Positions 113 through 52,458 of a stretch of 64,000 bases of DNA are shown here, in pieces. The stretch spans positions 4 to 64,003 of the forward strand of contig JAUWKI010000004.1 in the NCBI GenBank assembly GCA_030614255.1, in the 5' to 3' direction. The DNA comes from Actinomycetes bacterium. GTDB taxonomy: Bacteria; Actinomycetota; Aquicultoria; UBA3085; Oleimmundimicrobiaceae. A program made the translations under genes and the position numbers. Below the pieces are notes generated by a model that saw only the letters and a program-made list of their open reading frames with translations, made no database searches and had not been told where the DNA came from. Each line of letters begins with the position of its first letter. Positions within the stretch are counted from its first letter, which is position 1.

Positions 113-1171
113 TCAGCCAAAATATTTCTTTCTCAAGACCGAAGAAAGCTCCGAAGTTAATCTGATGCTCTTTTTCGCCAATTCTTCCGGCATCGAACCG
201 GTACCACAATTTGGCGTGATTAAACTTGCCTCAAGGAGTTTTGTTTTATCTATCCCTTTGTCGACCAACAACCCAATTTTCTCTTCAAATCTGTCAAGAA
301 TACCGTCTAAGGTTTTGCTTGCTATCGCATCAGGACTTGGATAAGTAGATGGAACTATCCCCCACGCAAGAATTCCGTCTCTATTTAAAAATTCATTCAG
401 TTCCTTTGGGTAGAGCGCCACACTTTCGGTATGGTCATACGCATCAAAACTTATAATATCAACAGCAGTTTCCATTAAAATGCTCCAGTCGGTGCGACCG
501 CAACAATGAACACCACAAAGGCCTCCGACCGCATGGAAACACTCATTCAAATAGGATATGACTTCATCTTTATTCAATTTTATATAGGCTGAACCGTAAG
601 ACTGAAGATACGGCTCATCAAAGAAGATGACTGTTTTCACATCGGGGGACAACTTCTTAAATTGTCTCTCTTGCCATTTCGCCTTCATCGTGAGCGTCTT
701 TATGATAGCGTCTCTCAAGAAGTCATTGTAGAGAACCGCTTGTTTGTTTTGGTCGGTAACCGTTAAACCAAAGCTAATCGGACCAATTAGTTGACCTTTA
801 AGTAAAATCAAGTTGCTCGGCAGATTTTTTTCCAATATGCCAATCATGGTATGAAATCCTTGAGCATAATCCTTAGATATTCCGAAATAATTTAGATCTT
901 CAGCCAAGAACCTGTCATAGAATTTCTCAAGCTCCCAAGCCAAATTTTCTCTTGCTTCCACATGAATTTTCTTTTTCTCTTCATCTATTCTTACGCCAGG
1001 CATACCCTCCGAAACTTGAACGCACATGTTCTCCTTAAAAGAAAGGTTGGGAAGTTGTGGCCACGCCGGTATCTGTGGAGTATTCTTTAGAACAACTTCA
1101 CAAGCTTCGGTTGCATCTATCTGTGGCATGCTTCCGATTGTCATCGGGAGACAACGCGGTTTAAACTTCAT
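113..1171 (-). CDS. Core-MetE-like methyltransferase (Meth_synt_2 / cobalamin-independent methionine synthase C-terminal-domain family, ~350 aa short form)
   Basis: N-terminal LPMTIGSMPQ closely matches the MetE C-terminal-domain signature LPTTTIGSFPQT. A candidate His/Cys metal motif (GVHCCG) is present. Length fits short core-MetE proteins. The gene sits at the 3' end of the hdrCB operon. Confidence 0.55.
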   Translation of the reverse strand: MKFKPRCLPMTIGSMPQIDATEACEVVLKNTPQIPAWPQLPNLSFKENMCVQVSEGMPGVRIDEEKKKIHVEARENLAWELEKFYDRFLAEDLNYFGISKDYAQGFHTMIGILEKNLPSNLILLKGQLIGPISFGLTVTDQNKQAVLYNDFLRDAIIKTLTMKAKWQERQFKKLSPDVKTVIFFDEPYLQSYGSAYIKLNKDEVISYLNECFHAVGGLCGVHCCGRTDWSILMETAVDIISFDAYDHTESVALYPKELNEFLNRDGILAWGIVPSTYPSPDAIASKTLDGILDRFEEKIGLLVDKGIDKTKLLEASLITPNCGTGSMPEELAKKSIRLTSELSSVLRKKYFG

Positions 1172-6375: not shown

Positions 6376-7442
6376 TGCTCCCTCAACATCTTTACAACTT
6401 CCGCCGCTGCCGCTCTTCCATGAGCCATAGACTCCTCAATGTCTTTCGGTCCCTGACAAGCTCCGGCAAGAAAAATACCGGGAGTGTTTGAAAGGTTTGT
6501 GCTTTGCTTTAGTCCTTTAAAAAAGTTGTGCTCATCGAGGTCAACTTTGAAAGTATTGGCTAAAAATTTCACATCATTCTGAGGAGACATCCCAACGGAC
6601 AGAACTATGAGGTCAAATTCGTCTTGAACGACCTCGCCCGTATTGTTATTTAAATTATTTACGCGCATAAAATCTGAATCGGCGTATCCATAAATCTTGG
6701 AGGGTAGATTTCTCACAAATTTTATTCCCATCTCTTCGCAGCTCTCGCGAAGTTTTAAAAAATCTTTTCCGGTGGGCTGAACGTCCATATAAAAAATTGT
6801 GATATCTGATTCAGGAATCTCCGATTTTACAAGCTTTGAAAGTTTTAGCGCATAAGAACAACAGACTTTGGAACAGTATCCCTTGCCAATACTTTCATCC
6901 CTACTCCCAACGCATTGAAAGAAAGTAATTTTTTCCGGAGCTGAACCATCCGTAGGTCGTGAAATTGCTCCGTTTGCGCGGATAGCCCTCTCAAAATCCG
7001 ATGCGGTAATAACGTTCTTGTACTTACCGTATCCATATTCCTTCTTCTCTTCCGCATTAAAAGGCATGAAGCCAGTCGCGATGACAATTGCTCCAATCTT
7101 TAACACCGACTCTTTAAAGAGCGACTCCTCTCCGCCAGCTTGAGAAATTCGCAGTTCAAAATCTCCAGGTTTACCCGAAAAAGACATCACCTCAGAGCCG
7201 GTTAAAACCCTTATCTTAGGATGTTGAGAAGCTTTTAAGACGAGCTCATCGGCAACACATACAAGGCACTTACTGCACTTGTCTGTAGCTTTGCAAGCGA
7301 AACTTGTTGCATGTCCACCCAGCTGAACATCTCTTTCAATTATGTGAACCATAAAACCTATATCGGTCAAAGCCACAGCCGCGCTTATGCCAGCAACACC
7401 ACCGCCGATGATGGCCACTTCTTTTGAGTTCATGTCGCCCAT
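6372..7442 (-). CDS. hdrA: HdrA-like FAD-dependent oxidoreductase (thioredoxin-reductase fold with Cys-rich inserts)
   Basis: IIGGGVAGISAA FAD motif. CKATDKCSKCLVC and CVGSRDESIGKGYCSKVCC cysteine clusters typical of HdrA. Confidence 0.7.
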   Translation of the reverse strand: MGDMNSKEVAIIGGGVAGISAAVALTDIGFMVHIIERDVQLGGHATSFACKATDKCSKCLVCVADELVLKASQHPKIRVLTGSEVMSFSGKPGDFELRISQAGGEESLFKESVLKIGAIVIATGFMPFNAEEKKEYGYGKYKNVITASDFERAIRANGAISRPTDGSAPEKITFFQCVGSRDESIGKGYCSKVCCSYALKLSKLVKSEIPESDITIFYMDVQPTGKDFLKLRESCEEMGIKFVRNLPSKIYGYADSDFMRVNNLNNNTGEVVQDEFDLIVLSVGMSPQNDVKFLANTFKVDLDEHNFFKGLKQSTNLSNTPGIFLAGACQGPKDIEESMAHGRAAAAEVVKMLREQ

Positions 7443-7462
7443 TCCTTTTAGATTTATTGGGA

Positions 7463-8806
7463 TTAAGCGCTCCAGTTTTTAAGATAAGATGGTATGTCCC
7501 CGGCTTCTCGCGGACCAACTTGTATTTCCCAATCGGGAAGTTCTTCTTCCAGCTCGCCACTTATCTGAGCCACATATCCCGGGATTACCATCTTGCGATG
7601 TTTAACTTTGTCGGTAATTCCACAACGCTTCATGAATGGGCCAATATTTTCAGGTATAAACTTACCAGCAGCCCAAGCAGTTAAAACTGATAGTCCCTCC
7701 ACATCCATTATGCAAATCCAGGACGGAATCTTACTCGCCTCCACTTCACCTGAAACGGTGAAGTAAGTTAAGGAAAAGTTTGTAGTAAGAAGCACGGGTG
7801 AATTTTCATCTGGCTCCCCGACGGGATAAATCCCTTCATCAACCTGCATTGGCTTCTGCGGATCGGTATAGATATTTTGGCGTAAAACATATAAGGGAAA
7901 CGCCTTCCATGGTTCAAGATCGCTTACGACAATAACTCCCGCATACTTCATTATGCCAACGCCAGCGGCCACCGCTTCCATGTAAGGATCGTCATACATC
8001 TCGCAAGGAAACGTGATGATTGGGTAACCGAGTGGTTTGTATTTTTTCTTAAGAGCCGCACGTCTTATGAAGGTTGCATCCCTTAAGCTATCCCTTATAT
8101 TCCTTGAGCCAGGGTCTAACACTATATCTTTAATCCCCTTGGCGGTTACTTTTTCCACTAAGTCCGAAAGCATGCTCAGATCTTTGGCAACAACCGCCAG
8201 CGGACAATTACTTTCTTTGGCAAAAGCAGTCATCTGCTCAAAATTGCTCTCATTGGCCGCATAAATAAGTGGCTTAGTTTGAGCACAAACAGAAAGAGCA
8301 GCTTTCATCATCTCAGGATTATCTGTGATTAGCACCAAAGGAAAACCGGTCTCCACGGCTCCCTTAACTAACTCGGTAAACTTAGTCGAATCATTTGAAG
8401 ATGACTTAACAGCCACCAAGTCGGCTCGAAGAAACTGGCCCACCCTTTCAAATTGGGAGTTCTTCAACTGGGCAAATTTTTCATCAATTTTCGCCTTATC
8501 CATTCCATCATCTACAAGAACAGCCAGACCCGGTTGGTGGTAGAAAGTCTTCTCGTGACGAAAGAGCACCGCCTCCTCACCAATTTTAAGAGCTTTATCC
8601 CCAACACCTATGGTCACAAGACGTATGGGTGGGGCCGAAGCCTCGGTTAGCTCAGTCTTTGCTTCCTCTGAAACGTAAGGGCATGCATCCAGCTGCGCTT
8701 GTCCTGCCACAAGTTTCATAGCAAAAGCAAGACAGGTAGGTATCCCGCATTCGCCACAATTTTTTTGAGGTAGTTTTTTGTAAATATCAAGTCCAGTTAA
8801 CGCCAT
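7463..8806 (-). CDS. acsC: Corrinoid iron-sulfur protein large subunit (CFeSP gamma, AcsC/CdhE)
   Basis: N-terminal CGECGIPTCLAFAMKL [4Fe-4S] motif. 447 aa. Adjacent to acsB. Confidence 0.9.
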   Translation of the reverse strand: MALTGLDIYKKLPQKNCGECGIPTCLAFAMKLVAGQAQLDACPYVSEEAKTELTEASAPPIRLVTIGVGDKALKIGEEAVLFRHEKTFYHQPGLAVLVDDGMDKAKIDEKFAQLKNSQFERVGQFLRADLVAVKSSSNDSTKFTELVKGAVETGFPLVLITDNPEMMKAALSVCAQTKPLIYAANESNFEQMTAFAKESNCPLAVVAKDLSMLSDLVEKVTAKGIKDIVLDPGSRNIRDSLRDATFIRRAALKKKYKPLGYPIITFPCEMYDDPYMEAVAAGVGIMKYAGVIVVSDLEPWKAFPLYVLRQNIYTDPQKPMQVDEGIYPVGEPDENSPVLLTTNFSLTYFTVSGEVEASKIPSWICIMDVEGLSVLTAWAAGKFIPENIGPFMKRCGITDKVKHRKMVIPGYVAQISGELEEELPDWEIQVGPREAGDIPSYLKNWSA

Positions 8807-8820
8807 ATAAAAAAATCTCC

Positions 8821-8912
8821 TTTCAGTCGATTTTAGCTACCAGCTATCAGTCGTCAGCTTCCAGGCGATACGCAATACTGCTGGCCCCTGGTGACTGGAT
8901 GCTGGGGGCTGA
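8821..8912. repeat. Interspersed repeat copy (CTACCAGCTATCAGTCGTCAGC variant) in the acsB-acsC gap
   Basis: Heptad-like CAGC-AT-CAG units matching the 1-112 and 2724-2752 modules. Confidence 0.5.
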
Positions 8913-11114
8913 TTAGAACATCGGTGGCATCTCCAAAGCTGGATGACTCACTTTCTGCATATGAGCTATAACCTCTTCTTCAGTAGTTGCCACGGTTTCA
9001 TCAGCTATCTTGTCAACAAAGTCAGAAACGCCCTCTTCTTCCGCACGTTTTTGAAGCTCTGAACGAAGAGTGTCTTTCAACTCTTTGGGCATCCAAACGA
9101 GTCTCTTTAAGCCACCATCGGCGGATATAAACTTCTTGCTGGTAATATACTGGCGACCTATACCGATGAATCCGGGTAGCTGAACACCGCCGCCGACCGT
9201 ACCGGCGAGGGTCGAAAATTTCATCCCGCAAGGAGTCATCTCGGGAAACTCCCTATTTACTATCATTACTCCGTTTGTCATCGGAAGAACCGCGACCACA
9301 CACTCAAAACAACCACACGAGGTCATCGGGTCTTCCATCATAGAATAGGCGTTAAAGCGCTCAAGAGACTGATTGGATTTTGCAAAGACAAACTCATTGA
9401 CATTTTTCCACTGGCCTTTGACCGCATCTATCGTATCGCCTTTTTTAACCGGCTGGTTAGGCCCCGTCGGATTGATTTCATAGGCTGCCTTGCCATCAAG
9501 CCAGTTATACGCCCCACAAAGACCCAGTCTCTCAGGCGTAATTATGCAGACGTGGTTCGGAGCAAAACTCTGACATAAGGTACAGGAATAAAAGGTATCA
9601 ACGTTTTCATCGGTCATACCGCGCACCCTTTCATCTCTGTGACGGTAGGTTTTTCTCGCTTCCTCCATCATCCGGTCAACCTTTTCAAGATCGGTGTAGA
9701 TTGTAACTTGAGCCTTATCCACAATTGCGGGGTAATCCGCGGCAAGTTTTGCGATAAGTATCTTTCCAAAGTGATGAAATTTAAAACCAGCATTCTTTGC
9801 CTTTTTGCTAACTCTTACCCATATGATGTTACGCTGACCCATATGAAATATTCCCTCAGCACCATTAATCATATGGTGAACTTGCCTCTCCAGAACCGAT
9901 TCAAAATCCTCTTGCATCTTTCTGCCAGCAACATCTATCACTACGCCGAGGGGAAGTCTTTCGCCTTCTTTGATATCATCTATATCTTTGCCAACTACCT
10001 CGATTTTGCCATTTTCCACCTCATCCATCTCTTTCATCCTCAAGAATTCGAAGGCGTGTGTCTTTGTTCCACCAAATTCTACGTAGGTATCTTCCCCTCT
10101 AATTCTCTCTCCTTCAAAAGCAGAGCCGTAGGCCACGGGTATATCAATCTTAGTAACCTGAACCTTAAGCCCTCTTACCTCAATTGCTCTTTCCACTAAT
10201 TTATCGTGGGGAATATTTGACACAACATGCTCGTAAGTACAGATTCCTGTTGGAAGAATCTGGGGAATATCAGTATCGGCAATGGTCGGAAAACCATAAT
10301 TTACAGCTCCCACCGCTTGAGCATATTTTTCATCTTCAACTTCGCCCAAAGCCAGAACGAAAGCAAAGATTCTGTTCTTGTTGTAGAGCAACACTTTCCT
10401 AAAATCTCCGGGCTTAACCCCACCGAAAGAAAGCGCAGCCCGAGTTGCAAAACCCGCGGAAAAAACGGTCGCGGTAATATCTTTGCCGAAGGGAACGAGG
10501 CGGGTTTCCCAACCCATCTGGATACCTTCTTCTTTGAGTTGCTCGGCCATGCTTTTTCCATCAGCCGAAGCCGACATGAAGACGTAAATATTTTTCTCCT
10601 GAAGCTCTCGAGCAATCTTTACCGCTATTTCATTTGTGGGAGCTGCTCCAACGCATGCGGCAAAACCGGGCGCTGAGCCATCAACAAATTCGATGCCTCT
10701 TTCTCTCATTATGACGTCATCGGCCGCACCCAACCAAAGATTATCATCAGTTGGTTCCGATGACATTGTATAAGGAGGGGACTCCACATACTTAATTGCC
10801 TCGATAATTTCATCCATAAAGAGCGTTGCCATACCGGCATCCAAAGCAGGAGCCAGATACGGCAGCCAGACTTTCTCCGATGGAACAGAAGGGAGCAAAC
10901 TCTTGGAATATGCCAAAACCTTCTCCATATCACCAAGAGTAGAAACTGCCATTCCGGTAATTCCATAAATTACAGGCAAATAATACCCCGTGTTTGGAAA
11001 CTCCACTTTTTTATCGGGTCCATGTTTCTTTAAAGCTTCTTTAAGATTTTCTTCCGCCCTCTTAGCTATCTTATGGGCGCCCCTTATGGCAGCCGAAGCG
11101 ATAATCTTAGACAA
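8913..11114 (-). CDS. acsB: Acetyl-CoA synthase (CODH/ACS A-cluster subunit)
   Basis: 733 aa. CGCFEC A-cluster motif, plus CTLCQSF and CGAYNW regions. Overlaps the cooS stop by 8 nt. Confidence 0.9.
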   Translation of the reverse strand: MSKIIASAAIRGAHKIAKRAEENLKEALKKHGPDKKVEFPNTGYYLPVIYGITGMAVSTLGDMEKVLAYSKSLLPSVPSEKVWLPYLAPALDAGMATLFMDEIIEAIKYVESPPYTMSSEPTDDNLWLGAADDVIMRERGIEFVDGSAPGFAACVGAAPTNEIAVKIARELQEKNIYVFMSASADGKSMAEQLKEEGIQMGWETRLVPFGKDITATVFSAGFATRAALSFGGVKPGDFRKVLLYNKNRIFAFVLALGEVEDEKYAQAVGAVNYGFPTIADTDIPQILPTGICTYEHVVSNIPHDKLVERAIEVRGLKVQVTKIDIPVAYGSAFEGERIRGEDTYVEFGGTKTHAFEFLRMKEMDEVENGKIEVVGKDIDDIKEGERLPLGVVIDVAGRKMQEDFESVLERQVHHMINGAEGIFHMGQRNIIWVRVSKKAKNAGFKFHHFGKILIAKLAADYPAIVDKAQVTIYTDLEKVDRMMEEARKTYRHRDERVRGMTDENVDTFYSCTLCQSFAPNHVCIITPERLGLCGAYNWLDGKAAYEINPTGPNQPVKKGDTIDAVKGQWKNVNEFVFAKSNQSLERFNAYSMMEDPMTSCGCFECVVAVLPMTNGVMIVNREFPEMTPCGMKFSTLAGTVGGGVQLPGFIGIGRQYITSKKFISADGGLKRLVWMPKELKDTLRSELQKRAEEEGVSDFVDKIADETVATTEEEVIAHMQKVSHPALEMPPMF

Positions 11115-25000: not shown

Positions 25001-25744
25001 TTACATACCCAAAATTGATTTTAGCTCCGAAGCTTTTCTTCGACTGACCGGAACTTCAATTTCTCCCGAAAGACGCAAGATAAAACTTCCATGAAACATC
25101 GGTATAATTTCTTTAGCTTTATGTATATTGACAAGATAACTTCGGTGAGTTCTAAAGAAGCCCCTACTCAAGAGACGGGATTCCAATTCCTTCAAATTGG
25201 AAGAGGCAGGATAAACACCGCCCGTCGCGTGAACAAAAATTCGCTCATTCTGAGCATGTATATAAGCAATATCATTGATTGGCAGTAGAATCATTTTCCC
25301 TTTCTCTTGCACGGGCAAGAGATCCACTCCCGTCTTCTCCCCCTTGACCTTCTTCTTGTGCCCGAGTCTTTTGGGGTCCGCTTTATATCGAGAAACTTTC
25401 TCTATGGTTTGAACAAGACGCTTCTCCTCAAATGGTTTAACCAGATAATCGAGGGCATCGAGCTCAAATGCTTTTACCGCATATTCTCCATAAGCGGTAA
25501 CGAAGACAACCGCTGGCGATGAAGGAAGCTCCTTAATGATTTCGGCTACTTGCAGACCAGTTAACCCCTGCATCTGAATATCCAGGAAGACCACATCATA
25601 ACTTAATGCTTTTATGAGCTCGATTGCTTCATCCGCGTTTGTAGCTTCGCCAACCACCTCGACATTGCTTATCTCTTGCAGCATATATCTGAGCTCTGAG
25701 CGAGCAGGCACCTCATCGTCAACTATTAATGCTTTAATTTTCAT
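25001..25744 (-). CDS. LytTR-family two-component response regulator
   Basis: Receiver domain (LIVDDE..D) and C-terminal LytTR DNA-binding domain. Overlaps the kinase gene stop. Confidence 0.85.
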   Translation of the reverse strand: MKIKALIVDDEVPARSELRYMLQEISNVEVVGEATNADEAIELIKALSYDVVFLDIQMQGLTGLQVAEIIKELPSSPAVVFVTAYGEYAVKAFELDALDYLVKPFEEKRLVQTIEKVSRYKADPKRLGHKKKVKGEKTGVDLLPVQEKGKMILLPINDIAYIHAQNERIFVHATGGVYPASSNLKELESRLLSRGFFRTHRSYLVNIHKAKEIIPMFHGSFILRLSGEIEVPVSRRKASELKSILGM

Positions 25745-27059
25745 TTTTCCCTCCCATTATGGGAATGCGCATCGTAACCTTAGTACCTTTATTCTCTGCG
25801 CTGATTACTTCCAATGCATACTCTTCGCCGTAGAGATTTTTTAGCCTTTCATTTACATTACTTAAACCTATCCCCATCCCCTTACCAAACCCCGGAGATA
25901 GAACTCTACTCAAATCTTCCTCGCTAATACCTTTACCATTATCGCATACTTGAACCGTCATCTCTGAATTATGAATTTTCGCCACTACCCTTATTTTGAT
26001 ATGCCCCTCCGATGTTCCTCCGTGTTTAATCGCATTTTCAACTAGGGGCTGTATAATTAGGGCCGGCATCTTAATCCCCAGGGCTTCTTTGTCTACATCT
26101 TCCAACACCTGGAGATTCTTTCCAAACCTAGCCTTTTCGAAAAACAAATACGAGTCAACGTAATCGATCTCTTCCTCCAAGGTAACCAAGTCCGATTCCC
26201 GTTTAAGTGATTGTCTAAAAAAATCAGCAAATTGGATTATGAGCCGTCTGGCTTTTTTGGAGTCGGTTCTACATAAACTAGCAATAGTGTTTAGGGTGTT
26301 GAAAAGAAAATGCGGGTTTATTTGAGCCTGTAACGCCTTAAGTTCAGCATTACAAGCAAGTTTCTCTTGCCTGTCGATTTCCGAGAGCTCAAGCTGGGTA
26401 CTCAATAGTTTGGCCAATCCTTCAGCAAGTGTTATTCTGCTCTCGGTCAATTCTTCTTTATCAGGATAATAAAATTTTAAAGTGCCAACCGCCTTGCCGC
26501 TCACCTCCAAAGGAACGACTATGGCTGCTCTTAAGGGGCAATCGGAAACGGGGCAACCTATCTCTTCTTTGCTCTCCAAGATTCTTACTTCGTTGTGTTC
26601 CAGAGCTTCTTTGGTTGCCTCCGTTAAAATCGGCCCACCTGTCTTGTGGTGATCCTCCCCTACGCCGGAGAAAGCCAATACCACTGTCAGATCCGTAAGT
26701 GCCACGGCCATCGAGTCGGTTTTTCCCCTCAATATTGCCACAACTTCGCTTCCCGATTCTTCATTAAGACCTGTTCGAAGATACGGCAAAGTAGCATTTG
26801 CTATCTCAAAAACCTGATGTGAGTATATAGCTTTAAAATGCTCGGACTCGCCTTTCTCTACCCATGTCTTCAAAACCACGAATATCACAAGTGCCACAAA
26901 CGGCCCTAATAAAATCAAGCCCCATCCTTCAGAGATTGCTCCGAAACGAGACAGTATCCATCCAAAGACCATGGTGATAAATCCTACGAACATGCTCATC
27001 AGTATCATCTGACGTTTAAATTTATCCGCCCCAAGATGCTCTTTATGTTTAATAACCAT
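25734..27059 (-). CDS. Sensor histidine kinase (LytS/YehU-type His_kinase + HATPase, with TM segments and GAF-like domain)
   Basis: NPHFLFNTLN H-box of the LytS family. C-terminal ATPase G-boxes. Two N-terminal TM helices. Confidence 0.8.
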   Translation of the reverse strand: MVIKHKEHLGADKFKRQMILMSMFVGFITMVFGWILSRFGAISEGWGLILLGPFVALVIFVVLKTWVEKGESEHFKAIYSHQVFEIANATLPYLRTGLNEESGSEVVAILRGKTDSMAVALTDLTVVLAFSGVGEDHHKTGGPILTEATKEALEHNEVRILESKEEIGCPVSDCPLRAAIVVPLEVSGKAVGTLKFYYPDKEELTESRITLAEGLAKLLSTQLELSEIDRQEKLACNAELKALQAQINPHFLFNTLNTIASLCRTDSKKARRLIIQFADFFRQSLKRESDLVTLEEEIDYVDSYLFFEKARFGKNLQVLEDVDKEALGIKMPALIIQPLVENAIKHGGTSEGHIKIRVVAKIHNSEMTVQVCDNGKGISEEDLSRVLSPGFGKGMGIGLSNVNERLKNLYGEEYALEVISAENKGTKVTMRIPIMGGKNEN

Positions 27060-27350: not shown

Positions 27351-29129
27351 TCAAATATCCTTCGCGATACACGTTCTGTTACGTCCGCCTTTTTTGGCTT
27401 GATACATAGCTTGATCCGCCATATCAAATAATAACAAGGGGTCATTCGTCTCCCGGGAAAAAGCAGCGACTCCGAGACTTAAAGTTATGGGAATACGTTT
27501 TTGCCCAAAAATGAATTTGAATTCTTCGGTCTTGTGACGCAACTTTTCCGCAACTGCAAAAGCTTCCGTCTTTCTAATCTGTGGCAAAATTATCGCAAAT
27601 TCATCTCCTCCTTGACGAGCAGAAATATCGGCTTCACGTAAATTATCACATAATATTTTTGCCACCAATTTTAGGACTTCGTCTCCTCTTACGTGTCCAT
27701 AGGTATCATTTATTAGCTTAAACCGGTCGACATCGAAGACTATAATGGATAACTCCGAGCTATAACGCTGGGCTCTCTTTATCTCTTTCTCAAGCGTGCG
27801 AGTAAACCCATAATGATTGAGCAACTCTGTAATTGCATCTATCATGGATATCTTTTCCGCTTTTTCTTTTACTTGAGCCATGAGCTTCTTCTGATGAGGA
27901 AAACATGCGCTCCAATTGGTCATTCCTCGGTGTATAGCACTTGCGTTTTCATCACATGTTCCGTACCCACAAACACCACAATTAAGCTCGTCCTCAAGCG
28001 TAAAAATATCCGCCTCCACCAACAACCCTTTTAGCTCCTCTTTTGTGGGAGAAGCCGTGGAAATTGCTTTGTTGGCGAAAGTTCTTCTCAGCTCTATTTT
28101 GGGTAAGTTAGGAAATATCTCGGAAGAGCTGGGCCACCCAATCTTCTTTCTCTCTTTTCTGTAGCTTCGCTGTATTTGATTCTTTAAGAGATATAAACTT
28201 CTCCCATCGGCCAAACCGTTTCTCATTGCAGGGCCATCGATGCAACCCTTACAGCTTAAAGCATCCACAAAATGCGCTCGAACCTCGTTTTTGCTTAAGG
28301 CTTCCGCTAGAGTTTGAGTTTCCCACGTACTTCTAGTTATCCTAAGTTTACGGTTAATGGTGCTCGTTTTCGCCATAAATTGCCGAGGCAATCCCCCTGG
28401 CAAAGAATCCGCGCGCAAAACACGCTCAACCGGCTCCATTCTTGCCTCGGATAATAATTTGAGGTCAATCTCGTTTTCCTCAAACATCTTTTTTAACTCA
28501 GAGAAGGTTATTACCGTATCGATAGCATCCATGATGGGTCCGTCCATCGCCTCGGCCTTCTGGGCAACACACGATGTCACATAGACAGTGTAAGCTCCTT
28601 CATATAGCGCTTTACAAAGGCGTCCCTGTGCAACCATTGGTGACACAACAGGCACGAGACAGGGGATAAGATCAGGAAAGTACTTTTCTACTAAGTTTGT
28701 GACGACGGGACAAGTGGAGCGAATTATCGGAAAATCTTCATCTTGGCTCAGAATTTTCATATATTCAGCAGCTACAAGTTCCTCCCCTAGAATAGTGCCT
28801 TCGATAGCATCAAACCCTAGCCTTATGAGACCAGCCGTAATTTCAGTGGAACCGAACGGATGAAAAGCTGCAAGGTATTCGGGAGACAAAATTGCAATGG
28901 CCTTCTTTTTTTTATTAACAAGACTGTACACCTTCTGAGTGTCGTCCTTATACGTCAACGCTCCTTGAGAACAAGCTATTATACATTCGCCGCAATATAC
29001 GCATGCTTCGTCCAAAACCTCGACACAATTACCGTTTAACTTTATGCTCTTAACAGGGCATGAACGGATACAACTATAGCATTCCTTGCATTTGTCGGGG
29101 TGGTTTTCTATGGCTTTTATGGGTTCCAT
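27351..29129 (-). CDS. Sensory [FeFe]-hydrogenase-like (H-cluster domain) protein fused to GGDEF diguanylate cyclase
   Basis: N-terminal 2x[4Fe-4S]. Fe_hyd_lg_C-like region retains H-cluster Cys ligands (STCP, SCVAQKAE, SCKGC-GP) but has TCP where catalytic enzymes have TSCCP. Extra Cys cluster CGVCGYGTC. C-terminal GGDEF with RxxD I-site. Confidence 0.7.
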   Translation of the reverse strand: MEPIKAIENHPDKCKECYSCIRSCPVKSIKLNGNCVEVLDEACVYCGECIIACSQGALTYKDDTQKVYSLVNKKKKAIAILSPEYLAAFHPFGSTEITAGLIRLGFDAIEGTILGEELVAAEYMKILSQDEDFPIIRSTCPVVTNLVEKYFPDLIPCLVPVVSPMVAQGRLCKALYEGAYTVYVTSCVAQKAEAMDGPIMDAIDTVITFSELKKMFEENEIDLKLLSEARMEPVERVLRADSLPGGLPRQFMAKTSTINRKLRITRSTWETQTLAEALSKNEVRAHFVDALSCKGCIDGPAMRNGLADGRSLYLLKNQIQRSYRKERKKIGWPSSSEIFPNLPKIELRRTFANKAISTASPTKEELKGLLVEADIFTLEDELNCGVCGYGTCDENASAIHRGMTNWSACFPHQKKLMAQVKEKAEKISMIDAITELLNHYGFTRTLEKEIKRAQRYSSELSIIVFDVDRFKLINDTYGHVRGDEVLKLVAKILCDNLREADISARQGGDEFAIILPQIRKTEAFAVAEKLRHKTEEFKFIFGQKRIPITLSLGVAAFSRETNDPLLLFDMADQAMYQAKKGGRNRTCIAKDI

Positions 29130-29231
29130 AATGTTTCCTTAATAATTTTCACCATCTCTACATAAACGAATTTCACAGCATTATGGTGAGTCCAAAAAAA
29201 ATATCAATGTTTCTAAAAAACTTCTGAAGTC

Positions 29232-33977: not shown

Positions 33978-34184
33978 AGAACAACCTCACTTAAAGATTT
34001 ATCCTATTCTAACAACTTGTAAGGGGCAAAACAACTTTACTTAATTACTTAATCGGAAGATTAAAAAAGTGTGGCAATCGGCAACAAGCTTAAGCCTCTC
34101 GCTTAAATCGCCAAAGCTAACCAAGAGAAAATTATTTAAAAGAGATCCACTAGCCGATTGTCTGTAAACATTTTACGGTCAACC

Positions 34185-34212
34185 ATTATCGTATTAACGT
34201 TAATACGATAAT
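34185..34212. promoter_or_regulatory. 28-bp perfect palindrome ATTATCGTATTAACGTTAATACGATAAT between the por operon and lysC
   Basis: Verified base by base. ~210 bp upstream of the lysC start. Confidence 0.4.
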
Positions 34213-34332
34213 ATCCTGGTTAATTGGTATGTTTTAACAACGGTCAGCGTAAAAGTACTCTCTGGTAAGAATTCTTTCTCTTACAATTTAAACATAATTT
34301 AATTACTCAGCAAAATTTGTCTTTTGAATAAG

Positions 34333-34366
34333 AAAACCCCCGTCCTAAGGAACGAGGGTTTTGTTT
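34333..34366. terminator. Bidirectional rho-independent terminator hairpin (AAAACCC...GGGTTTT) downstream of porB
   Basis: GC stem with flanking A-run and T-run. Sits 25 bp after the porB stop (minus strand). Confidence 0.55.
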
Positions 34367-34388
34367 AATATTTTTATGTAACAATATC

Positions 34389-44026: not shown

Positions 44027-45943
44027 GTGAGAAAACTCAAAATAATTCTCATTTTAGTTCTGGTTGTCTTTTTATTTTCGGGTTGCCAGGGTAAAGGGGA
44101 GAAAGATTTAAAAATAAAAACTGTTGAGTTTGGACACCATAGGGCCGTAATTGAGCTTTCAAGAGAAACCCCAATATCCTCGGTGAGCGTTTTTGACCAG
44201 GATGGATCGCTCATAACCACAGTCACCATTGGTTCAGAAGTTTCAAAACAAGCCATCCTCTTTTTTGATTGGGAGGAGGCTCGGCCTTACTTATTCCAAA
44301 TCAATCTCAAGAACGGAAATATGATAGAAAAAGAGGTAAAATCTCCGGCCAAGCCGACCTCCGTTGCTAAATTCTGTATTCAGGCCCCCTACGGAATGAG
44401 AGAAAGCGACGAGAGGAGCCTTGTTGCCAAAGGAAGCAAAGTCACGGCCACCGTTTTTTTAGAAAGTTACTCCGGCAATCCTCTGCAAGCAAGCGTAAAA
44501 CTGACTTTGCCAAAAGAGTTCAAGCTGGTTCGAACACCTTCAATTTTTAAGGCAAAAGAGACGAGAGAAGGTCACATCCTTACGGCCGAATGCAAACTGG
44601 TAACAGAATTTGACAATTTCAACGAATTGCTGGAATTTGAGGTGCTGTCCACTCTCGCCGAAGACATCTACAAAATCGAGGGAGAAGCCACCGTTGAAGA
44701 AATAATAAACGGCGAGCGCAAGGTCACGCAGTTCCAAAAAGAAAAAGAACTGCGCGTAATCTCTTTAAAAGAGGCGAAGAACCTGGCTCATATAGCTGGA
44801 ATCAAAGTACCCACCAATGACGAGGGAGATTTTGATTCTCGTAAGAAAGAAAATACCCTGGCCCTAAGCGTAGATGGTAACAATTTCTTAAAAAGAATCC
44901 TTGGAACCGGCAACAAAGAGATTGATTACCTCGAGCACCCCCTTGCCTTTGCCACCACCACGGTCAGGAATGAAAATCAAGATAACGTGGTCTTTCTTGT
45001 AACATCCAAAGTGCTGGACCCCAAGACAAAAAAGATAGCCCAGGCCTTTCGGGTTCCTCCCAACAAAAGCGGTGGCACAGGAGTGAGTTACGCCGTAGTT
45101 TCGGTGCCCGGGAAATCGGAAGCAAAAGCAACCCTTCCTATTTATGTCAATGAAGCTGAGGTCTTGGGGGGTAAATATATTTTGGAGAGCGAAATTAAAA
45201 TATTCGGGACAGACAAAGCCATCTCTAAAAAACAAAAAGAGATCGATGTCATCACCAGAAACCCAGTCCCCGGGCTCATCACCCTCGCCGCTTTTTTAAT
45301 CACGGTGATAGGGCTTGGATATCTTGCAATTTGTCAAAAGGCATTTTTTAAAGGATTTAAGACCAAATGGCTGGTAATAATAGCTCTTTTTGGCACGGCC
45401 ACTTTCATTACGGTCAATGTGCCCGGCACCCTCCTTTGGGACTTCCTCCATGTCATCCTGGGCCCCTTTAGCTTCTTAATCACGGGAATCTTTTATGAAA
45501 TTATTCTTTACGCTCTCATCATGTCTCTTGTGGTCCTCATTCCCAGGCCGGGAGTGGTGACCCTCGCTTTGGGTGTAAGTTTTCTTTTAGGAGGAGTGGT
45601 GCTCGGCAATTTTAGCCCCGTCACCCTCATGTGGAAAGCATCTCTGATTTTTTTGCTCGAGACCACCCTATATCTCTTTGGCGTGACCAGGAAAAACGGC
45701 ATTCTGACGGATATCGGCGCGGAAAAGAGATGGCGCGTTCTCGCCACGGCGGGAATTGCCTGCGCGTTGGCTGATACCCTTTCCGTTTACATAAATTTCG
45801 GCACCACGATATTTTTATACAGACTTTACTACGCGACCTGGTACATTCATACTTATGCGGTAATCGATGGCTTCTTATACACCCTGGTGGGCGCCTTGGT
45901 GGGAACAAGATTAGGATTCAGTTTAAGAAAAATTATAGAATAG
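44027..45943 (+). CDS. Lipoprotein with ~400-aa extracytoplasmic domain fused to a C-terminal ~6-TM domain (candidate substrate-capture S-component of the downstream ECF transporter)
   Basis: Lipobox FSGC. C-terminal ~230 aa strongly hydrophobic with about 6 helices. Immediately upstream of the EcfA/EcfT genes. Confidence 0.45.
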   Translation: MRKLKIILILVLVVFLFSGCQGKGEKDLKIKTVEFGHHRAVIELSRETPISSVSVFDQDGSLITTVTIGSEVSKQAILFFDWEEARPYLFQINLKNGNMIEKEVKSPAKPTSVAKFCIQAPYGMRESDERSLVAKGSKVTATVFLESYSGNPLQASVKLTLPKEFKLVRTPSIFKAKETREGHILTAECKLVTEFDNFNELLEFEVLSTLAEDIYKIEGEATVEEIINGERKVTQFQKEKELRVISLKEAKNLAHIAGIKVPTNDEGDFDSRKKENTLALSVDGNNFLKRILGTGNKEIDYLEHPLAFATTTVRNENQDNVVFLVTSKVLDPKTKKIAQAFRVPPNKSGGTGVSYAVVSVPGKSEAKATLPIYVNEAEVLGGKYILESEIKIFGTDKAISKKQKEIDVITRNPVPGLITLAAFLITVIGLGYLAICQKAFFKGFKTKWLVIIALFGTATFITVNVPGTLLWDFLHVILGPFSFLITGIFYEIILYALIMSLVVLIPRPGVVTLALGVSFLLGGVVLGNFSPVTLMWKASLIFLLETTLYLFGVTRKNGILTDIGAEKRWRVLATAGIACALADTLSVYINFGTTIFLYRLYYATWYIHTYAVIDGFLYTLVGALVGTRLGFSLRKIIE

Positions 45944-48546: not shown

Positions 48547-50907
48547 ATGATAAAAGTGGGCTCCATCATGTGGGGAAGCCACGTTTCCACACTCGTTCAA
48601 GCAAGCAAGGAGCTCGATTTCGTACAGCTTGAGCTCCGTTCCATGCGCGACTTAGAGGATGAGCTGGTACAAGAGAAGTTTCTGGAGTATCTGCGACAAG
48701 AGGCGGATGTCCTTCTTCTCTATCCGTCCGCAAACGAAGTCTGGAGCGAGATGCTCCCCGAAATTGAAAAAATTAGAAAGGCCGTACCCACCGTCTCCTT
48801 CGGTCACGACCCCTCTTTCTGGAGTCTCTCTACCGTAGATCCCGAGACGGTGGCCACGGCCTATAAATATCTGGTAACCGACGGCTTGGAAAACATGAAA
48901 AGCCTGCTATCCTATATTGCCCGCGAGGTTCTCGATATCGAGATGGAGGTCGAGCCGCTTAAGGAAACGCCATGGCAGGGAATATATCATCCCAACGCCT
49001 CATCGCACTTTGACAACCCTGAAGATTACCTCAAATGGCACAAAAAATTCGACCCCTCCTGCCCCACCGCGGGTATCCTCTTTTATCGCTCTTACTGGAT
49101 AAACGGAAACCTCGAAGTAGAAAACGCTCTTATCCGCGCATTTGAGGATAGGAAAATTAACGTTGTGCCGGTCTTCTCCCACGGCTTTAAAGAAAATGAG
49201 CTGGGGGCCAAAGGAAATGACGTGGCGATCCCCGCTCTACTAACAAGGGATGGCGAGCCAATCGTCGACATCCTGCTCAATTTGCAATCTTTCTTTCTGG
49301 TAACCCTGCCGGAAGGCTCCGATGTCGGCTGCGCTGAGGCGGGTGTAGAACTACTTAAAAAACTGGATGTCCCGGTCATCGACCCCTTGGTTTCCTACCG
49401 CAAAACCGAAGAGGAGTGGAGAGCCGATGTTCAAGGTCTTGCCGAAAACATAGTCTGGTCGGTGGCCATGCCGGAATTTGATGGAATAATTGAGCCGCTG
49501 GTAATCGGGGTTCAAACAAGAGCAAGCGACGAGGAAACCGGGGTTACCCTCGAACGATACATGCCCATCCCGGAGCGGGTCAATCACATCGTTGAGCGGG
49601 CCAAGAAATGGATTCGCCTCCGAAGGAAACCGCCTCAAGAACGAAAGGTCGTCTTCGTTCTGCACAATAATCCATGCGCTGGTGTGGAGGCCACTGTGGG
49701 CAGCGGAGCAAACTTAGATACCTTGGAAAGCGTAGCTAAAACCATGCAAAAGATGAAGGAGCAAGGATACAAGGTCGAAAAAAACCCGTCTGAGGGGAAG
49801 AAGTTAATCGAGACCATCATGGAAAGAAAAGCCATCTCCGAATTCAGATGGACCCCTGTGGAAGAGATTGTAGCAAAAGGCGGGGCACACACCCTCCTTC
49901 CCTTGGAAAAATATCTGGTGTGGTGGAACAAGTTGCCGGAAAATGTGAGAGAGAAGATGGTCTCCACCTGGGGGGAACCGCCCGGCGAAGGGATGGTCCA
50001 CGAAGGAAAAATTGTGCTCACGGGGGTAGAATATGGAAATGTCATGGTTTGTGTCCAACCCAAACGGGGATGCTATGGGGCACGCTGCGACGGACAGGTC
50101 TGCAAGATACTCCACGATCCCGACTGTCCCCCCACTCACCAATACCTGGCCACTTACAGATATCTGGAGGATATCTGGGGAGCCGATGCCGTAGTGCACG
50201 TGGGAACCCACGGCAATTTGGAGTTTTTGCCCGGAAAGGCAGTGGGGCTTTCCGATTCTTGCTATCCCGACATAGGAATCGGCACCCTCCCCCATCTCTA
50301 CATATACAACGCCGACAATCCACCGGAGGGGACCATCGCCAAGCGAAGAAGTTACGCCACGCTGATCGACCACATGCAGACGGTGATGACCGAAAGCGGT
50401 CTCTATGAAAGTTTAAAGGAGTTGGAGGGATATCTGGCCGAATATAACCAGGCTAAAATCTCCAATCCGGCCCATGCTCACGCCCTGGAGCATCTCATCG
50501 TGGACAAAATAAAGGAGTCCAAATTAGAGAAAGAGATAGGGATCGAGGAAAAAGATATTCATGGAGAAGAATCCCTCGACAAAACCGTCAAACGGGCCCA
50601 CGAAGTTTTAACTCGCCTGAGAGAGACCCAAATTCAAGACGGCATGCACATCTTCGGGGAGCTCCCTCAAAGCGACGCCCGAGTAGAGTTCATAAACTCC
50701 ATTCTTCGTTACGACTCGGATGAAGAATTCTCTTTCCGGAAGACAATCTTTGAGCTCATGGACTTAAACTACAATTACGCCTTGAACAACCCCGCCGAAT
50801 ATTACGATGACTTCGGTAAAACCTATGGGGAGCTGCTCGAAGAGGCCCAAGGATACTCAAAGGAGTTCATTAGGGAGTTTCTCGCACACGAAGAGGAGGT
50901 AAATTAA
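48547..50907 (+). CDS. cobN: CobN-like chelatase, N-terminal portion (786 aa)
   Basis: CobN/Mg-chelatase H family motifs (HVGTHGNLEFLPGK, YIYNADNPPEG). Ends at an in-frame TAA. Confidence 0.8.
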   Translation: MIKVGSIMWGSHVSTLVQASKELDFVQLELRSMRDLEDELVQEKFLEYLRQEADVLLLYPSANEVWSEMLPEIEKIRKAVPTVSFGHDPSFWSLSTVDPETVATAYKYLVTDGLENMKSLLSYIAREVLDIEMEVEPLKETPWQGIYHPNASSHFDNPEDYLKWHKKFDPSCPTAGILFYRSYWINGNLEVENALIRAFEDRKINVVPVFSHGFKENELGAKGNDVAIPALLTRDGEPIVDILLNLQSFFLVTLPEGSDVGCAEAGVELLKKLDVPVIDPLVSYRKTEEEWRADVQGLAENIVWSVAMPEFDGIIEPLVIGVQTRASDEETGVTLERYMPIPERVNHIVERAKKWIRLRRKPPQERKVVFVLHNNPCAGVEATVGSGANLDTLESVAKTMQKMKEQGYKVEKNPSEGKKLIETIMERKAISEFRWTPVEEIVAKGGAHTLLPLEKYLVWWNKLPENVREKMVSTWGEPPGEGMVHEGKIVLTGVEYGNVMVCVQPKRGCYGARCDGQVCKILHDPDCPPTHQYLATYRYLEDIWGADAVVHVGTHGNLEFLPGKAVGLSDSCYPDIGIGTLPHLYIYNADNPPEGTIAKRRSYATLIDHMQTVMTESGLYESLKELEGYLAEYNQAKISNPAHAHALEHLIVDKIKESKLEKEIGIEEKDIHGEESLDKTVKRAHEVLTRLRETQIQDGMHIFGELPQSDARVEFINSILRYDSDEEFSFRKTIFELMDLNYNYALNNPAEYYDDFGKTYGELLEEAQGYSKEFIREFLAHEEEVN

Positions 50908-52458
50908 GTGGAAATAAAATTGGATCAGCGGTTAAAGGAGTTTGAAAACCTCGCCACAAACATCATGGGCGACAGATTCATAAATCCCGAAGCACTCGAA
51001 AAACTCTCGGTTCTAAAGTCGAAAGTTTTGGACATCTCCGCCAGGATTGAGGCCTCAAAGGAAATCGAAAGCCTGCTTCACGGACTCTCCGGCGGCTACA
51101 TCGAAAGCGGGCCCTCGGGACTTATCACCCGAGGGAGGGCAGACATCCTTCCCACCGGAAGAAATTTTTACTCTCTCGACCCTTATAAGGTTCCCACCAA
51201 GGCCGCTTGGAGGGTGGGAAGAAGCCTTGCAAACGGTTTAATTGAAAAATATGTGGCAGACACGGAAGAGATGCCCGAGAACTGCGGCATGGTGCTCTTC
51301 TGCACCGATATTATGTGGTCAGATGGCGAGGAAGTATCGCAGATTCTCTATCTTTTGGGCGTGGAGCCGAAATGGTTGAGCAACGGCCGGGTGAAGGGTT
51401 TTCGGATAATCCCTTTGGAAGAGCTCGGCCGGCCCAGAATAGACGTGACCATCCGTATCGGGGGCATAACACGAGATTGCTTCCCCAATATCATGGAGTA
51501 TCTGGACGAGGCAATAACGGCGGTTGCCTCCCTGGATGAACCCTTGGAGCTCAACTTCGTCCGCAAACACGCCCTCGAGCAACTCGACGGCTCTTTGGAC
51601 CCGCAAGCGTGGAGAGAGGCCACTTCCCGCATCTTCGGCAGTCGCCCGGGAACCTACGGCTCCGGCGTAAATCTTGCCGTCTACGCCAGCGCGTGGAAAG
51701 AGGAAGAGGACCTGGCAGATGTCTTTACTTATTGGAGCGGCTACGCCTACGGCAAGGAGATGTTTGGTAAAGAATCCCATGAAACCTTCTTCAAACAGCT
51801 CAAGTCGGTTGATTTGACTTATAATAAGACGGTAACCGACGAATATGATTTATTCGGCTGTTGCTGCTATTTCTCCTATCAAGGAGGACTGACGGCAGCG
51901 GCTAAAAATGCCTCGGGGAAAGAGGTAAAAACCTACTATGGCGACACAAGAAACCCGGCCAAGATCGAAGTAAGGGATTTGGCCGATGAAATTAGGCGCG
52001 TAGTGCGGACAAAGCTTCTCAACCCAAAATGGATCGAGGGAATGAAGCGTCACGGCTACAAAGGAGCCGGTGATATCTCCAAAAGAATAGGTAGGGTCTA
52101 CGGATGGGAAGCGACCACCGAACAGGTCGACGATTGGATATTCGACGAAATCGCCGAAACATTCGTATTAAATGAAGAGAACCGAAAGTTCTTCGAGGAA
52201 AATAACCCCTGGGCCCTGGAAGAAGTGGGTCGAAGGCTTTTGGAGGCCGAACAAAGGGACCTATGGGATGCCAATCCAGAGGTCTTGCAACAATTAAAAC
52301 AAGCTTATCTCGAAATAGAGGGTTGGATGGAAGAAAAAACCGGTGACGTCCAAGGCGAATTTCAAGGAGGAGCGGTGGATGTAATTACGATGGATGAGGT
52401 CGAAGACTGGGGAGAAAAGATGAAGAAGTTAAAGAAAAAATTGCATGGTGGAGGATAA
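50908..52458 (+). CDS. cobN: CobN-like chelatase, C-terminal portion (516 aa), same frame as the upstream ORF
   Basis: CobN C-terminal motifs (ADILPTGRNFYSLDP). GTG start 8 nt after a GGAGG RBS, directly after the TAA. Confidence 0.8.
   Translation: MEIKLDQRLKEFENLATNIMGDRFINPEALEKLSVLKSKVLDISARIEASKEIESLLHGLSGGYIESGPSGLITRGRADILPTGRNFYSLDPYKVPTKAAWRVGRSLANGLIEKYVADTEEMPENCGMVLFCTDIMWSDGEEVSQILYLLGVEPKWLSNGRVKGFRIIPLEELGRPRIDVTIRIGGITRDCFPNIMEYLDEAITAVASLDEPLELNFVRKHALEQLDGSLDPQAWREATSRIFGSRPGTYGSGVNLAVYASAWKEEEDLADVFTYWSGYAYGKEMFGKESHETFFKQLKSVDLTYNKTVTDEYDLFGCCCYFSYQGGLTAAAKNASGKEVKTYYGDTRNPAKIEVRDLADEIRRVVRTKLLNPKWIEGMKRHGYKGAGDISKRIGRVYGWEATTEQVDDWIFDEIAETFVLNEENRKFFEENNPWALEEVGRRLLEAEQRDLWDANPEVLQQLKQAYLEIEGWMEEKTGDVQGEFQGGAVDVITMDEVEDWGEKMKKLKKKLHGGG

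Follow-up and report, generated by a model that had tools for sequence, protein, structure and literature searches.

A hydrogenase-derived iron-sulfur module fused to a diguanylate cyclase in uncultured Actinomycetota: a candidate redox sensor with a remodelled di-iron pocket

Two sensory [FeFe] hydrogenases have been characterised: TmHydS of Thermotoga maritima (group C, or M2f), which ends in a PAS domain whose partners are unknown, and TamHydS of Thermoanaerobacter mathranii (group D, or M2e), which has no output domain at all. We know of no demonstration that these so-called sensory enzymes sense H2, or of how they signal. The two groups, both putatively sensory, share a C-terminal cysteine motif, Cx2Cx4Cx16C, and their genes often lie in one operon with group A hydrogenases (PMC8163306). 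A Cys is found at position 299 in only 17% of the sequences of sensory enzymes, whose residue at position 353 is Gly, Ser or Thr (PMC10055695). Here we describe a gene in which a HydS-type iron-sulfur (Fe-S) module is fused directly to a GGDEF diguanylate cyclase. The gene lies in a 64,000-nucleotide stretch, hereafter the window, of contig JAUWKI010000004.1 (GenBank assembly GCA_030614255.1), from an actinobacterium of the Oleimmundimicrobiaceae. Our preferred, tentative reading is that its product is a hydrogenase-derived Fe-S redox sensor without the canonical [2Fe] subcluster, which would drive the synthesis of cyclic di-GMP (c-di-GMP).

The only outputs named in recent hydrogenase reviews and research papers are of the PAS and kinase types, and a full-text literature search, which left most subscription journals outside its coverage, returned no description of a hydrogenase-type sensor fused to GGDEF. 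As far as searched, a GGDEF-linked sensor of this kind is undescribed, and the sequences are already public under generic names. An earlier reading of the DNA by a model that saw only the letters and their translated reading frames (hereafter the sequence-only reading) had singled out the GGDEF output as unusual, a judgement with which the literature agrees. Cofactor sensors that act through a helical linker on a dimeric GGDEF domain are known from DosC, a globin-coupled O2 sensor, and from IsPadC, which is linked to a phytochrome. These use haem or bilin, whereas the sensor of the window protein is a multi-cluster Fe-S module of hydrogenase type. Low-turnover hydrogenases also serve as H2 sensors that control a signalling enzyme in the regulatory [NiFe] proteins HoxBC/HupUV with the kinase HoxJ. 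Unlike the window protein, however, these are complexes of several proteins from an unrelated family of metalloenzymes, and their output is a kinase that controls hydrogenase genes.

The features of the gene and its neighbours are collected in Table 1. It is the sole open reading frame (ORF) at its location, starts with ATG, and has an AAGGA ribosome-binding site 6-7 nt upstream. The identical protein is present on the ENA contig NODE_81_length_64170, of which the window is essentially the entire record. The domain order of the sequence-only reading, namely two N-terminal [4Fe-4S] motifs, an H-domain, an extra cluster and a GGDEF domain, was recovered by Pfam, NCBIfam, AlphaFold2 and Foldseek. 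The N-terminal cluster ligands, read from the sequence, are C14xxC17xxC20xxxC24P and C43xxC46xxC49xxxC53, and these Cys are at least 90% conserved in the family and in its relatives alike. The H-domain matches PF02906 over the complete profile (positions 1-245 of 245; 138.7 bits versus a cut-off of 22.1), which places it in the H-domain superfamily. The additional Cys cluster reported to follow it is Cx2Cx4Cx16C, matched by PF04060, and is kept in 52/52 GGDEF-linked members. The GGDEF domain matches PF00990 over profile positions 2-161 of 161 (150.9 bits).

Table 1. Positions in the window of the fused gene, its domains and motifs, and the neighbouring signalling and Wood-Ljungdahl genes.
Feature	Position	Strand	Description
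Whole ORF	27351..29129	(-)	592 aa; HydS-type Fe-S sensor module fused to GGDEF diguanylate cyclase
Promoter-like site TTGATA-16-CATAAT	29180..29207	(-)	upstream of the start codon, within the 102-bp gap; 10/12 consensus matches
N-terminal ferredoxin-like domain	28959..29111	(-)	residues 7-57; two CxxCxxCxxxC [4Fe-4S] motifs; Pfam Fer4_10/Fer4 dicluster
[FeFe]-hydrogenase H-domain (Fe_hyd_lg_C)	28230..28907	(-)	residues 75-300; PF02906, E 3e-40
L1 motif R137-S-T139-C140-P	28707..28721	(-)	C140 = CpI C300; T139 replaces proton-relay C299; R137 replaces T297
L2 motif T185-S-C187-V-A-Q190-K191-A-E193	28551..28577	(-)	C187 = C355; T185 replaces M353; Q190 at K358; E193 = E361
L3 motif S-C293-K-G-C296-I-D-G-P	28230..28256	(-)	C293 = C499; C296 = C503
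C-terminal [4Fe-4S] motif C384-x2-C387-x4-C392-x16-C409	27903..27980	(-)	PF04060 FeS, residues 382-411
Linker helix	27840..27902	(-)	residues 410-430; last cluster Cys to D-x-L-T start of GGDEF domain
GGDEF domain	27375..27845	(-)	residues 429-585; PF00990, E 3.5e-44; TIGR00254, 160 bits
I-site R498-E-A-D501	27627..27638	(-)	RxxD five residues ahead of GGDEF; R498 and D501 invariant in family alignment
Active-site motif G507-G-D-E-F511	27597..27611	(-)	intact in 49/52 family members (family alignment)
LytS-type kinase	25734-27059	(-)	membrane-anchored; two N-terminal transmembrane segments and GAF; 291 bp downstream of the family gene
LytTR response regulator	25001-25744	(-)	after the kinase, then Wood-Ljungdahl cluster
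Complete Wood-Ljungdahl cluster	113-24874	(-)	actinobacterial contig; no hydrogenase gene inside

An AlphaFold2 model of the window protein, built on a 38-sequence family alignment, is confident, with a mean predicted local distance difference test score (pLDDT) of 90.7. When the model was searched with Foldseek, solved [FeFe] hydrogenases were matched over about 440 residues (E about 1e-18 to DdH, CpI and HydABC) and GGDEF cyclases over the C-terminus; no solved structure with the complete architecture was found in these structure searches. The Cys motifs show predicted sites for four [4Fe-4S] clusters in the sensor module, two N-terminal, one at the H-domain and one C-terminal. The gene product is predicted to be a soluble signalling enzyme in which a HydS-like Fe-S module is joined to a diguanylate cyclase that is competent for catalysis and inhibited by its product.

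Searching 5.8 billion proteins recovered about 50 clusters (at 90% identity) that share the architecture of the window protein. The best match is 79% identical and annotated "diguanylate cyclase [Candidatus Oleimmundimicrobium sp.]", from a genus in the class Candidatus Aquicultoria, and the named family members come from metagenome-assembled genomes (MAGs) of Actinomycetota, including some with Rubrobacteridae and Coriobacteriia labels. The family occurs almost only in uncultured Actinomycetota. When 1.84 billion representatives at 50% identity were searched exhaustively with phmmer, about 20-25 full-length ones stood among the best 150 matches; the family is real but small. Species genomes scanned with the single protein yielded no relative. 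When genomes were scanned with the family alignment, with GGDEF motifs as the search patterns, 79 of 80 loci were generic cyclases, and the sole full-length locus (L011) was in a Gemmatimonadales MAG at 30% identity.

A neighbour-joining tree was built from the first ~415 residues of 112 sequences and rooted on two group A fragments. In this tree 42 of the 43 GGDEF-linked H-domains fall in one clade (84/100 bootstraps), which is sister to, and not nested in, the clade of all kinase-, sigma54-, PAS- and no-output proteins. The remaining one, P0032, nests among kinase-linked proteins, and it shares with P0128, P0134, P0188 and P0194 the combination of a GGDEF output with canonical S232 and K358 (CpI numbering, see below). 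Judging from these sequences, GGDEF has been joined to HydS-type modules more than once. At the other extreme, the Gemmatimonadales locus, P0083, P0140, P0159 and P0175 lie in a deep branch where the H-cluster Cys are decaying.

The nearest proteins outside the clade are kinase- and sigma54-linked H-domain proteins (HydDB group C1-type), with 31-37% identity over the first ~415 residues. They are alike in having the same N- and C-terminal clusters, a short C-x-G-C L3 motif, and an enzymatic output directly after the C-terminal cluster, but the output is HisKA/HATPase or an AAA+ sigma54 domain, and S232 and K358 are nearly always kept. The canonical P1-P3 motifs have been described as hard to find in kinase-type group C1 proteins (PMC11406978). 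Direct fusions of HydS-type modules to sigma54 AAA+ activators with HTH_8 were seen in nine proteins (P0055, P0058, P0060, P0078, P0104, P0110, P0116, P0118 and P0120); in the hydrogenase literature covered, this output is unnamed. The window protein has both marks of groups C and D, the two N-terminal [4Fe-4S] motifs and the C-terminal Cx2Cx4Cx16C domain, but it has no PAS match, and GGDEF follows the C-terminal cluster where group C has PAS. Because it has no PAS domain, branches outside the sampled C/D-like clade and departs at the cyanide-contacting residues, the window protein is, on sequence grounds, not filed as a member of group C or D.

We sought whether the H-domain retains the site of the H-cluster. 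For the motifs, a profile of six family members was aligned to solved HydA chains; for the residue counts, 112 sequences plus two group A fragments were aligned, with 39 clade members and 69 relatives with other outputs being counted. The CpI residue numbers are our own assignment, based on these alignments and on the CpI sequence. The four H-cluster Cys (C140, C187, C293 and C296) are each conserved in 39/39 clade members, in line with the sequence-only reading, which had the four Cys retained. Beyond these Cys, however, the site has changed: at K358 the clade is variable and the window protein has Gln, at S232 there is an invariant Glu, and at T297 an invariant Arg. The three motifs named in that reading are likewise present, but not in canonical form. 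L2 has its Lys at Cys+4, with Gln190 at Cys+3 where the canonical MPCxxKxxE has Lys358, and L3 is C-x-G-C, one residue less than the C-x-G-G-C of group A and of the PAS-linked relatives. Just upstream of L3 (D-A-L291-S-C293), L291 replaces M497 of CpI.

The counts set the clade apart from its relatives. In L1, R137 and C140 are found in 39/39 members and T139 in 38/39. The K358 position is Arg in 14, Ala in 11, Lys in six, Gln in five, Val in two and His in one of the 39, versus Lys in 68/69 of the relatives with kinase, sigma54, PAS or no output; the S232 position is Glu (E84) in 39/39, versus Ser in 67/69. The window protein thus has neither the Lys358 at Cys+3 nor the Ser or Ala at position 232 that mark binders of the H-cluster. 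Lys191, at Cys+4, was considered as a stand-in for Lys358 by way of a one-residue helix shift and was rejected. The other-output relatives carry Lys at both Cys+3 and Cys+4, so Lys191 is the equivalent of Lys359, and Lys358 appears truly lost. Lys191 may compensate for this loss.

Only six H-domain residues combine a conservation of 90% or more in the clade with one of 15% or less in the relatives: E84, E110, R137, T139, S242 and P248. In CpI terms E84, R137 and T139 correspond to S232, T297 and C299, E110 lies two residues before I268, and S242 and P248 are on the F417-V423 loop; by this mapping, all six are on segments lining the [2Fe] site. S232 adjoins the proximal CN ligand. In the [2Fe] site the distal CN ligand is contacted by K358, P324 and Q325, and S232, I268, F417 and V423 are cavity residues (PMC10147833). 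The comparison shows pocket residues that have been replaced in concert and then strictly conserved. The net change is the loss of one positive charge and the gain of two acidic residues and one Arg, from which we infer an unfavourable setting for the dianionic Fe2(CO)3(CN)2(adt) unit (adt, azadithiolate). In the deep-branching P0083, P0094 and P0113 (representatives P0140, P0159 and P0175) L2 is lost, and in some also the Cys of L1 or L3, yet an intact GGDEF motif and the C-terminal cluster are still there, as are E84, R137 and T139. Since members with decayed Cys retain the clade-specific residues and the fusion, these do not depend on an H-cluster.

Genes needed to assemble an H-cluster were also not found nearby. 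The 64-kb contig has no hydEFG and no catalytic hydrogenase gene, and 11 related loci likewise have neither hydA nor hydEFG within 10 kb of the family gene. Of hydrogenase-related genes, these loci show only the [NiFe] maturation genes hypCDE, about 8 kb from the family gene in one of them (L008). Co-location with a group A hydrogenase operon, frequent for groups C and D, was seen neither in the window nor in the 11 loci. In a survey of three Wood-Ljungdahl-carrying actinobacterial clades at class level, a recognised [FeFe] hydrogenase with HydEFG was reported in one genome only, the others having [NiFe] enzymes (PMC7325909); this survey covers hydrogenases in older, incomplete MAGs, the genome of the window not among them. 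Given the loss of Lys358, the presence of E84, E110 and R137 in the pocket, and the absence of maturase and hydrogenase genes nearby, we tentatively prefer a module that no longer has the canonical [2Fe] subcluster.

The first alternative is a true H2 sensor, in which HydEFG encoded elsewhere install the [2Fe] unit, and H2 binding or slow oxidation is relayed through the C-terminal domain and the helix to the GGDEF dimer. Comparison with the two characterised enzymes is what speaks for it. TmHydS has the same two N-terminal motifs, a four-Cys H-domain and a C-terminal cluster before the output; it also has no Cys299, a small residue (Gly) at M353, no Met at M497, and no group A proton pathway. 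TamHydS, with residues A137, F119, E122, L157, S191 and L291 (PMC11803613), has nearly the same residue pattern as the window protein, in close numbering, and the same C-terminal cluster spacing. For group D, Glu252 has been proposed as a proton relay. C299 is Ala137 in TamHydS versus Thr139 in the window protein, and E279 is Phe119 versus Val119. In both proteins E282 is kept as Glu122, M497 is Leu291, and M353 is a hydroxyl residue (Ser191 and Thr185, respectively). The window protein thus has the sensory hallmarks, with T139 in place of Cys299, a small residue, T185, at M353, and a non-Met residue, L291, at M497. In the clade P324 is conserved, the M353 position is Thr, Gly or Ser, and the M497 position is Leu.

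The missing proton-relay Cys of the sequence-only reading was confirmed as T139 at C299, and the rest of the group A pathway is gone with it (E279 to V119, S319 to V159, R286 to I126; only E282 is kept). Such loss is typical of sensors, and the pocket, including the hydroxyl at the C299 position, is strictly conserved. Separate GGDEF fusions with a canonical pocket (P0032, P0128 and P0134) suggest that coupling of HydS modules to c-di-GMP has been selected more than once. The family gene also stands beside a Wood-Ljungdahl cluster in the window and in four related loci (L001, L003, L007 and L091; relatives down to ~40% identity).

Nevertheless, we regard an H2 sensor as less probable than a redox sensor. 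Q190 at K358, together with the negative charge that E84 and E110 bring to where the dianionic two-cyanide cofactor must sit, the shortened L3, the missing maturase genes, the little [FeFe] hydrogenase reported from these lineages, and the clade-specific residues retained by Cys-less relatives all weigh against it. The characterised enzymes also differ from the window protein. TmHydS has been shown to bind the H-cluster, which the window protein may not do, and TmHydS signals through PAS to separate partners, whereas the window protein is fused straight to GGDEF. PAS-linked relatives keep S232, K358 and the longer L3, in contrast to the Glu, the variable residue and the short L3 of the window clade. 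TamHydS and a group A hydrogenase are often encoded together; the window protein has a GGDEF output and no hydrogenase neighbour, and belongs to a separate clade. For the input of the protein, given earlier as H2 or redox state, redox appears to fit better, and H2 is possible without being the best-supported choice.

We therefore return to the Fe-S redox sensor, a reading that we hold with something less than even confidence. The N-terminal clusters would be the entry point for low-potential electrons, which come from reduced ferredoxin and indirectly from the H2, CO or formate supplied to the Wood-Ljungdahl pathway, and the redox state would alter the conformation of the assembly of H-domain and C-terminal cluster. 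The 21-residue helix would pass this change on to the GGDEF homodimer as a shift in register or orientation, switching the conversion of GTP to c-di-GMP, and the RxxD I-site would cap the output through product inhibition. The former di-iron cavity would, hypothetically, be filled by Arg and Glu. Nar1/NARF (IOP1) proteins, which are eukaryotic cytosolic Fe-S assembly factors, keep the cluster Cys while the di-iron subcluster is absent; the window protein may work like Nar1 in having no di-iron site, and Nar1 may serve as a precedent. Membership in Nar1/NARF was rejected, with no Nar1 sequences in the comparison, as the protein groups with bacterial sensory hydrogenases and carries extra domains. 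Nar1 is not known to have a C-terminal Cx2Cx4Cx16C domain or an output domain.

Several points weigh against the redox sensor. The ancestors and the sister clade are H-cluster-type sensors, and the four Cys, P324, the small residue at M353 and Leu at M497 fit the characterised ones; TamHydS, with Ser at M353 and Leu at M497, still binds the cofactor, and TmHydS has Gly at M353 (PMC8163306, PMC10055695, PMC11803613). A Lys, Arg or His occupies the K358 position in 21 of the 39 clade members. The filling of the cavity by Arg and Glu is only proposed; the strictly conserved, remodelled pocket could still bind something, and maturases could lie elsewhere in a genome from which the contig shows 64 kb. 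Furthermore, H2 does not reduce the C-terminal cluster in TamHydS (PMC13104023), and a simple redox switch at this cluster is established for no member of the wider family. By analogy, the C-terminal cluster may not need to change redox state during signalling under any of the readings.

The cyclase half is less ambiguous. The count of intact GGDEF motifs is taken from the family alignment, the exceptions being P0010 (GEDNF) and P0045 and P0048 (TGDRF); a regular-expression tally misread six further sequences by matching an earlier RxxD. The window protein has the metal and substrate residues D466/D468, N474, D483, K579 and R583, which the family conserves; we take them to be the equivalents of PleD D327, N335, D344, K442 and R446. 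The segments FDVDxFKxINDxxGHxxGD and KxGRN are invariant or nearly so in the family. The domain aligns end to end with the active cyclases IsPadC (5llw), Maqu_2607 with bound c-di-GMP (3ign) and DosC (4zve), which carry the same residues at the aligned metal and substrate positions. The intact GGDEF motif and RxxD I-site of the sequence-only reading therefore stand, the catalytic residues being not degenerate in this alignment. By every sequence criterion the window protein is a bona fide GGDEF-family protein, and its GGDEF domain is apparently an active cyclase with a product-inhibition site.

The two halves are joined by a linker of fixed length. In the AlphaFold2 model a single long helix (residues 410-428) lies between the last Fe-S Cys and the GGDEF domain, and this signalling helix begins one residue past the last cluster Cys (C409). 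The distance from the fourth Cys to D-x-L-T is exactly 21 residues (three heptads) in 49/49 main-type proteins, P0032 included, and 17 residues in three far members. The linker also aligns with the coiled-coil linker of IsPadC. Because it is invariant in length, predicted to be helical, and aligned with a coiled coil, the linker suggests a rigid coupling, in which a signalling helix would control the GGDEF dimer.

This linker bears on two further alternatives. The hydrogenase HMM match and the intact GGDEF motif would suit a catalytic hydrogenase with a regulatory GGDEF appendage, or a constitutive cyclase that carries an inert relic of an Fe-S module, both of which we consider very improbable. 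The L1 motif is RSTCP and not the TSCCPxW with Cys299 of catalytic groups A and B, the proton pathway is absent, and the scores against the curated catalytic NCBIfam models are far under their cut-offs (152.7 bits versus 450 for B1; 93.2 versus 406 for group A). An inert module, on the other hand, is hard to reconcile with a fixed 21-residue linker and with the conservation of all 16 cluster Cys across 35-45% identity in the family. Alternatively, the protein may sense oxidants or gases through the integrity of its clusters, in the manner of FNR, NsrR or WhiB, with O2, NO or reactive species damaging a cluster and thereby switching the cyclase. Four cluster sites in one soluble protein of a strict-anaerobe-type genome, a last C-terminal ligand right at the start of the signalling helix, and far members in which the H-site is gone while the N- and C-terminal clusters persist are consistent with this. 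We nevertheless consider it unlikely, as the sequence gives no specific pointer to oxidants, no oxidative-stress genes are nearby, and the conserved, remodelled pocket of the H-domain would be left without a role.

A sensor that an apparently rigid 21-residue helix joins to an enzyme whose product is simple to measure would offer a one-protein assay for sensory hydrogenases. The kinase- and sigma54-fused relatives could serve similarly, and the GGDEF fusion is thus not the sole route. The clade is also a natural experiment on the H-cluster pocket, in which the Cys are kept and the cyanide-contacting residues exchanged. In uncultured Wood-Ljungdahl Actinomycetota, the window protein would tie second-messenger control to the economy of redox or H2.

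In the window the family gene follows a YbaK-type editing gene and precedes the LytS-type kinase and the LytTR regulator, after which FTHFS and RACo come directly. The Wood-Ljungdahl cluster further comprises genes for HdrBC-like, MetF/MetV and HdrA-like proteins, AcsC, AcsB, CODH, a formate dehydrogenase whose N-terminus is NuoG-like, NuoF/NuoE-like proteins, AcsD, FolD and CooC. The signalling pair and the acetogenesis genes are thus where the sequence-only reading had placed them, but the adjacency it described is loose in relatives. In the window, and in 9 of 10 actinobacterial loci on other contigs (L006 is the exception), the kinase-regulator pair or its orthologues are found at most ~8 kb from the family gene. 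Co-transcription with LytS/LytTR as a general feature was rejected, since NUDIX, chromate-transporter, TauE and acetyltransferase genes intervene, some on the opposite strand; in L008 the pair is inverted. The upstream genes for Asp kinase, Asd, SLOG and YbaK, plainly unrelated in function, are equally conserved in relatives. We read the neighbourhood as a stable syntenic region, which is at most weak evidence for a functional link to LytS/LytTR. Promoter and terminator scans gave counts at the level of shuffled sequence and did not resolve the operon structure; the promoter-like site upstream of the gene is a consensus match only, and such sites are no more numerous in the region than expected from shuffling.

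In four relatives, the next gene after the family gene, at a distance of 12-27 bp, is a radical SAM orthologue (L005:11855-12874, L008:11875-12939, L009:11833-12852 and L092:11799-12812). These relatives come from different subclades, and the three copies compared by tblastn are 48-65% identical. The radical SAM neighbour was rejected as HydE or HydG, the L005 copy matching TIGR04337 (AmmeMemoRadiSam type; 297 bits versus a cut-off of 220). Beside the family gene in the window and its closest relatives, this gene is absent.

Such a neighbour raises one more alternative, that the rebuilt pocket beside the H-site [4Fe-4S] cluster binds another ligand or cofactor, such as a C1 metabolite or a radical SAM product. 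The six clade-specific invariant residues (two Glu, Arg, Thr, Ser and Pro), all at the pocket, are in its favour, as is the adjacency in the four relatives. If true, the family would be no hydrogen sensor at all, and would represent a new sensor class that responds to a ligand or cofactor and gives its signal as c-di-GMP. This appears quite unlikely to us: the radical SAM gene is missing beside the family gene in the window and the closest relatives, its family is normally part of the AmmeMemoRadiSam system, the whole block is syntenic and the adjacency may be inherited and not functional, and no ligand can be named.

Genes for candidate c-di-GMP phosphodiesterases with HAMP, GAF and HD_5 domains (HD-GYP type) are repeatedly found in relatives at a distance of a few genes from the family gene (L003:3006-5291, L005:1975-3070, L009:1-2491 and 7216-9342, L092:4990-6789, L010:6630-8066). 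In the window, the corresponding place is only a 410-bp gap (33978-34388) between the PFOR and Asp kinase genes. The window kinase has two transmembrane segments and GAF instead of the usual five-transmembrane Lyt sensor. In relatives, the kinase/LytTR pair adjoins FTHFS and Wood-Ljungdahl genes, a DUF485/SSF (ActP-like) pair, or acetyl-CoA synthetase, which hints at a role in C1 or acetate metabolism. Two further long ORFs of the window, 44027-45943 (+) (638 aa) and 113-1171 (-) (352 aa), are without a Pfam match at E <= 1e-5. The CobN/Mg-chelatase sequence is divided between two neighbouring ORFs, 48547-50907 and 50908-52458 (+), which cover profile positions 1-657 and 661-1089. They lie with cobalt ABC transport and ChlI/VWA chelatase genes in a plus-strand block of higher G+C (0.49-0.51), at the end of which is an IS200-like Y1 transposase gene (56274-57143, (-)).

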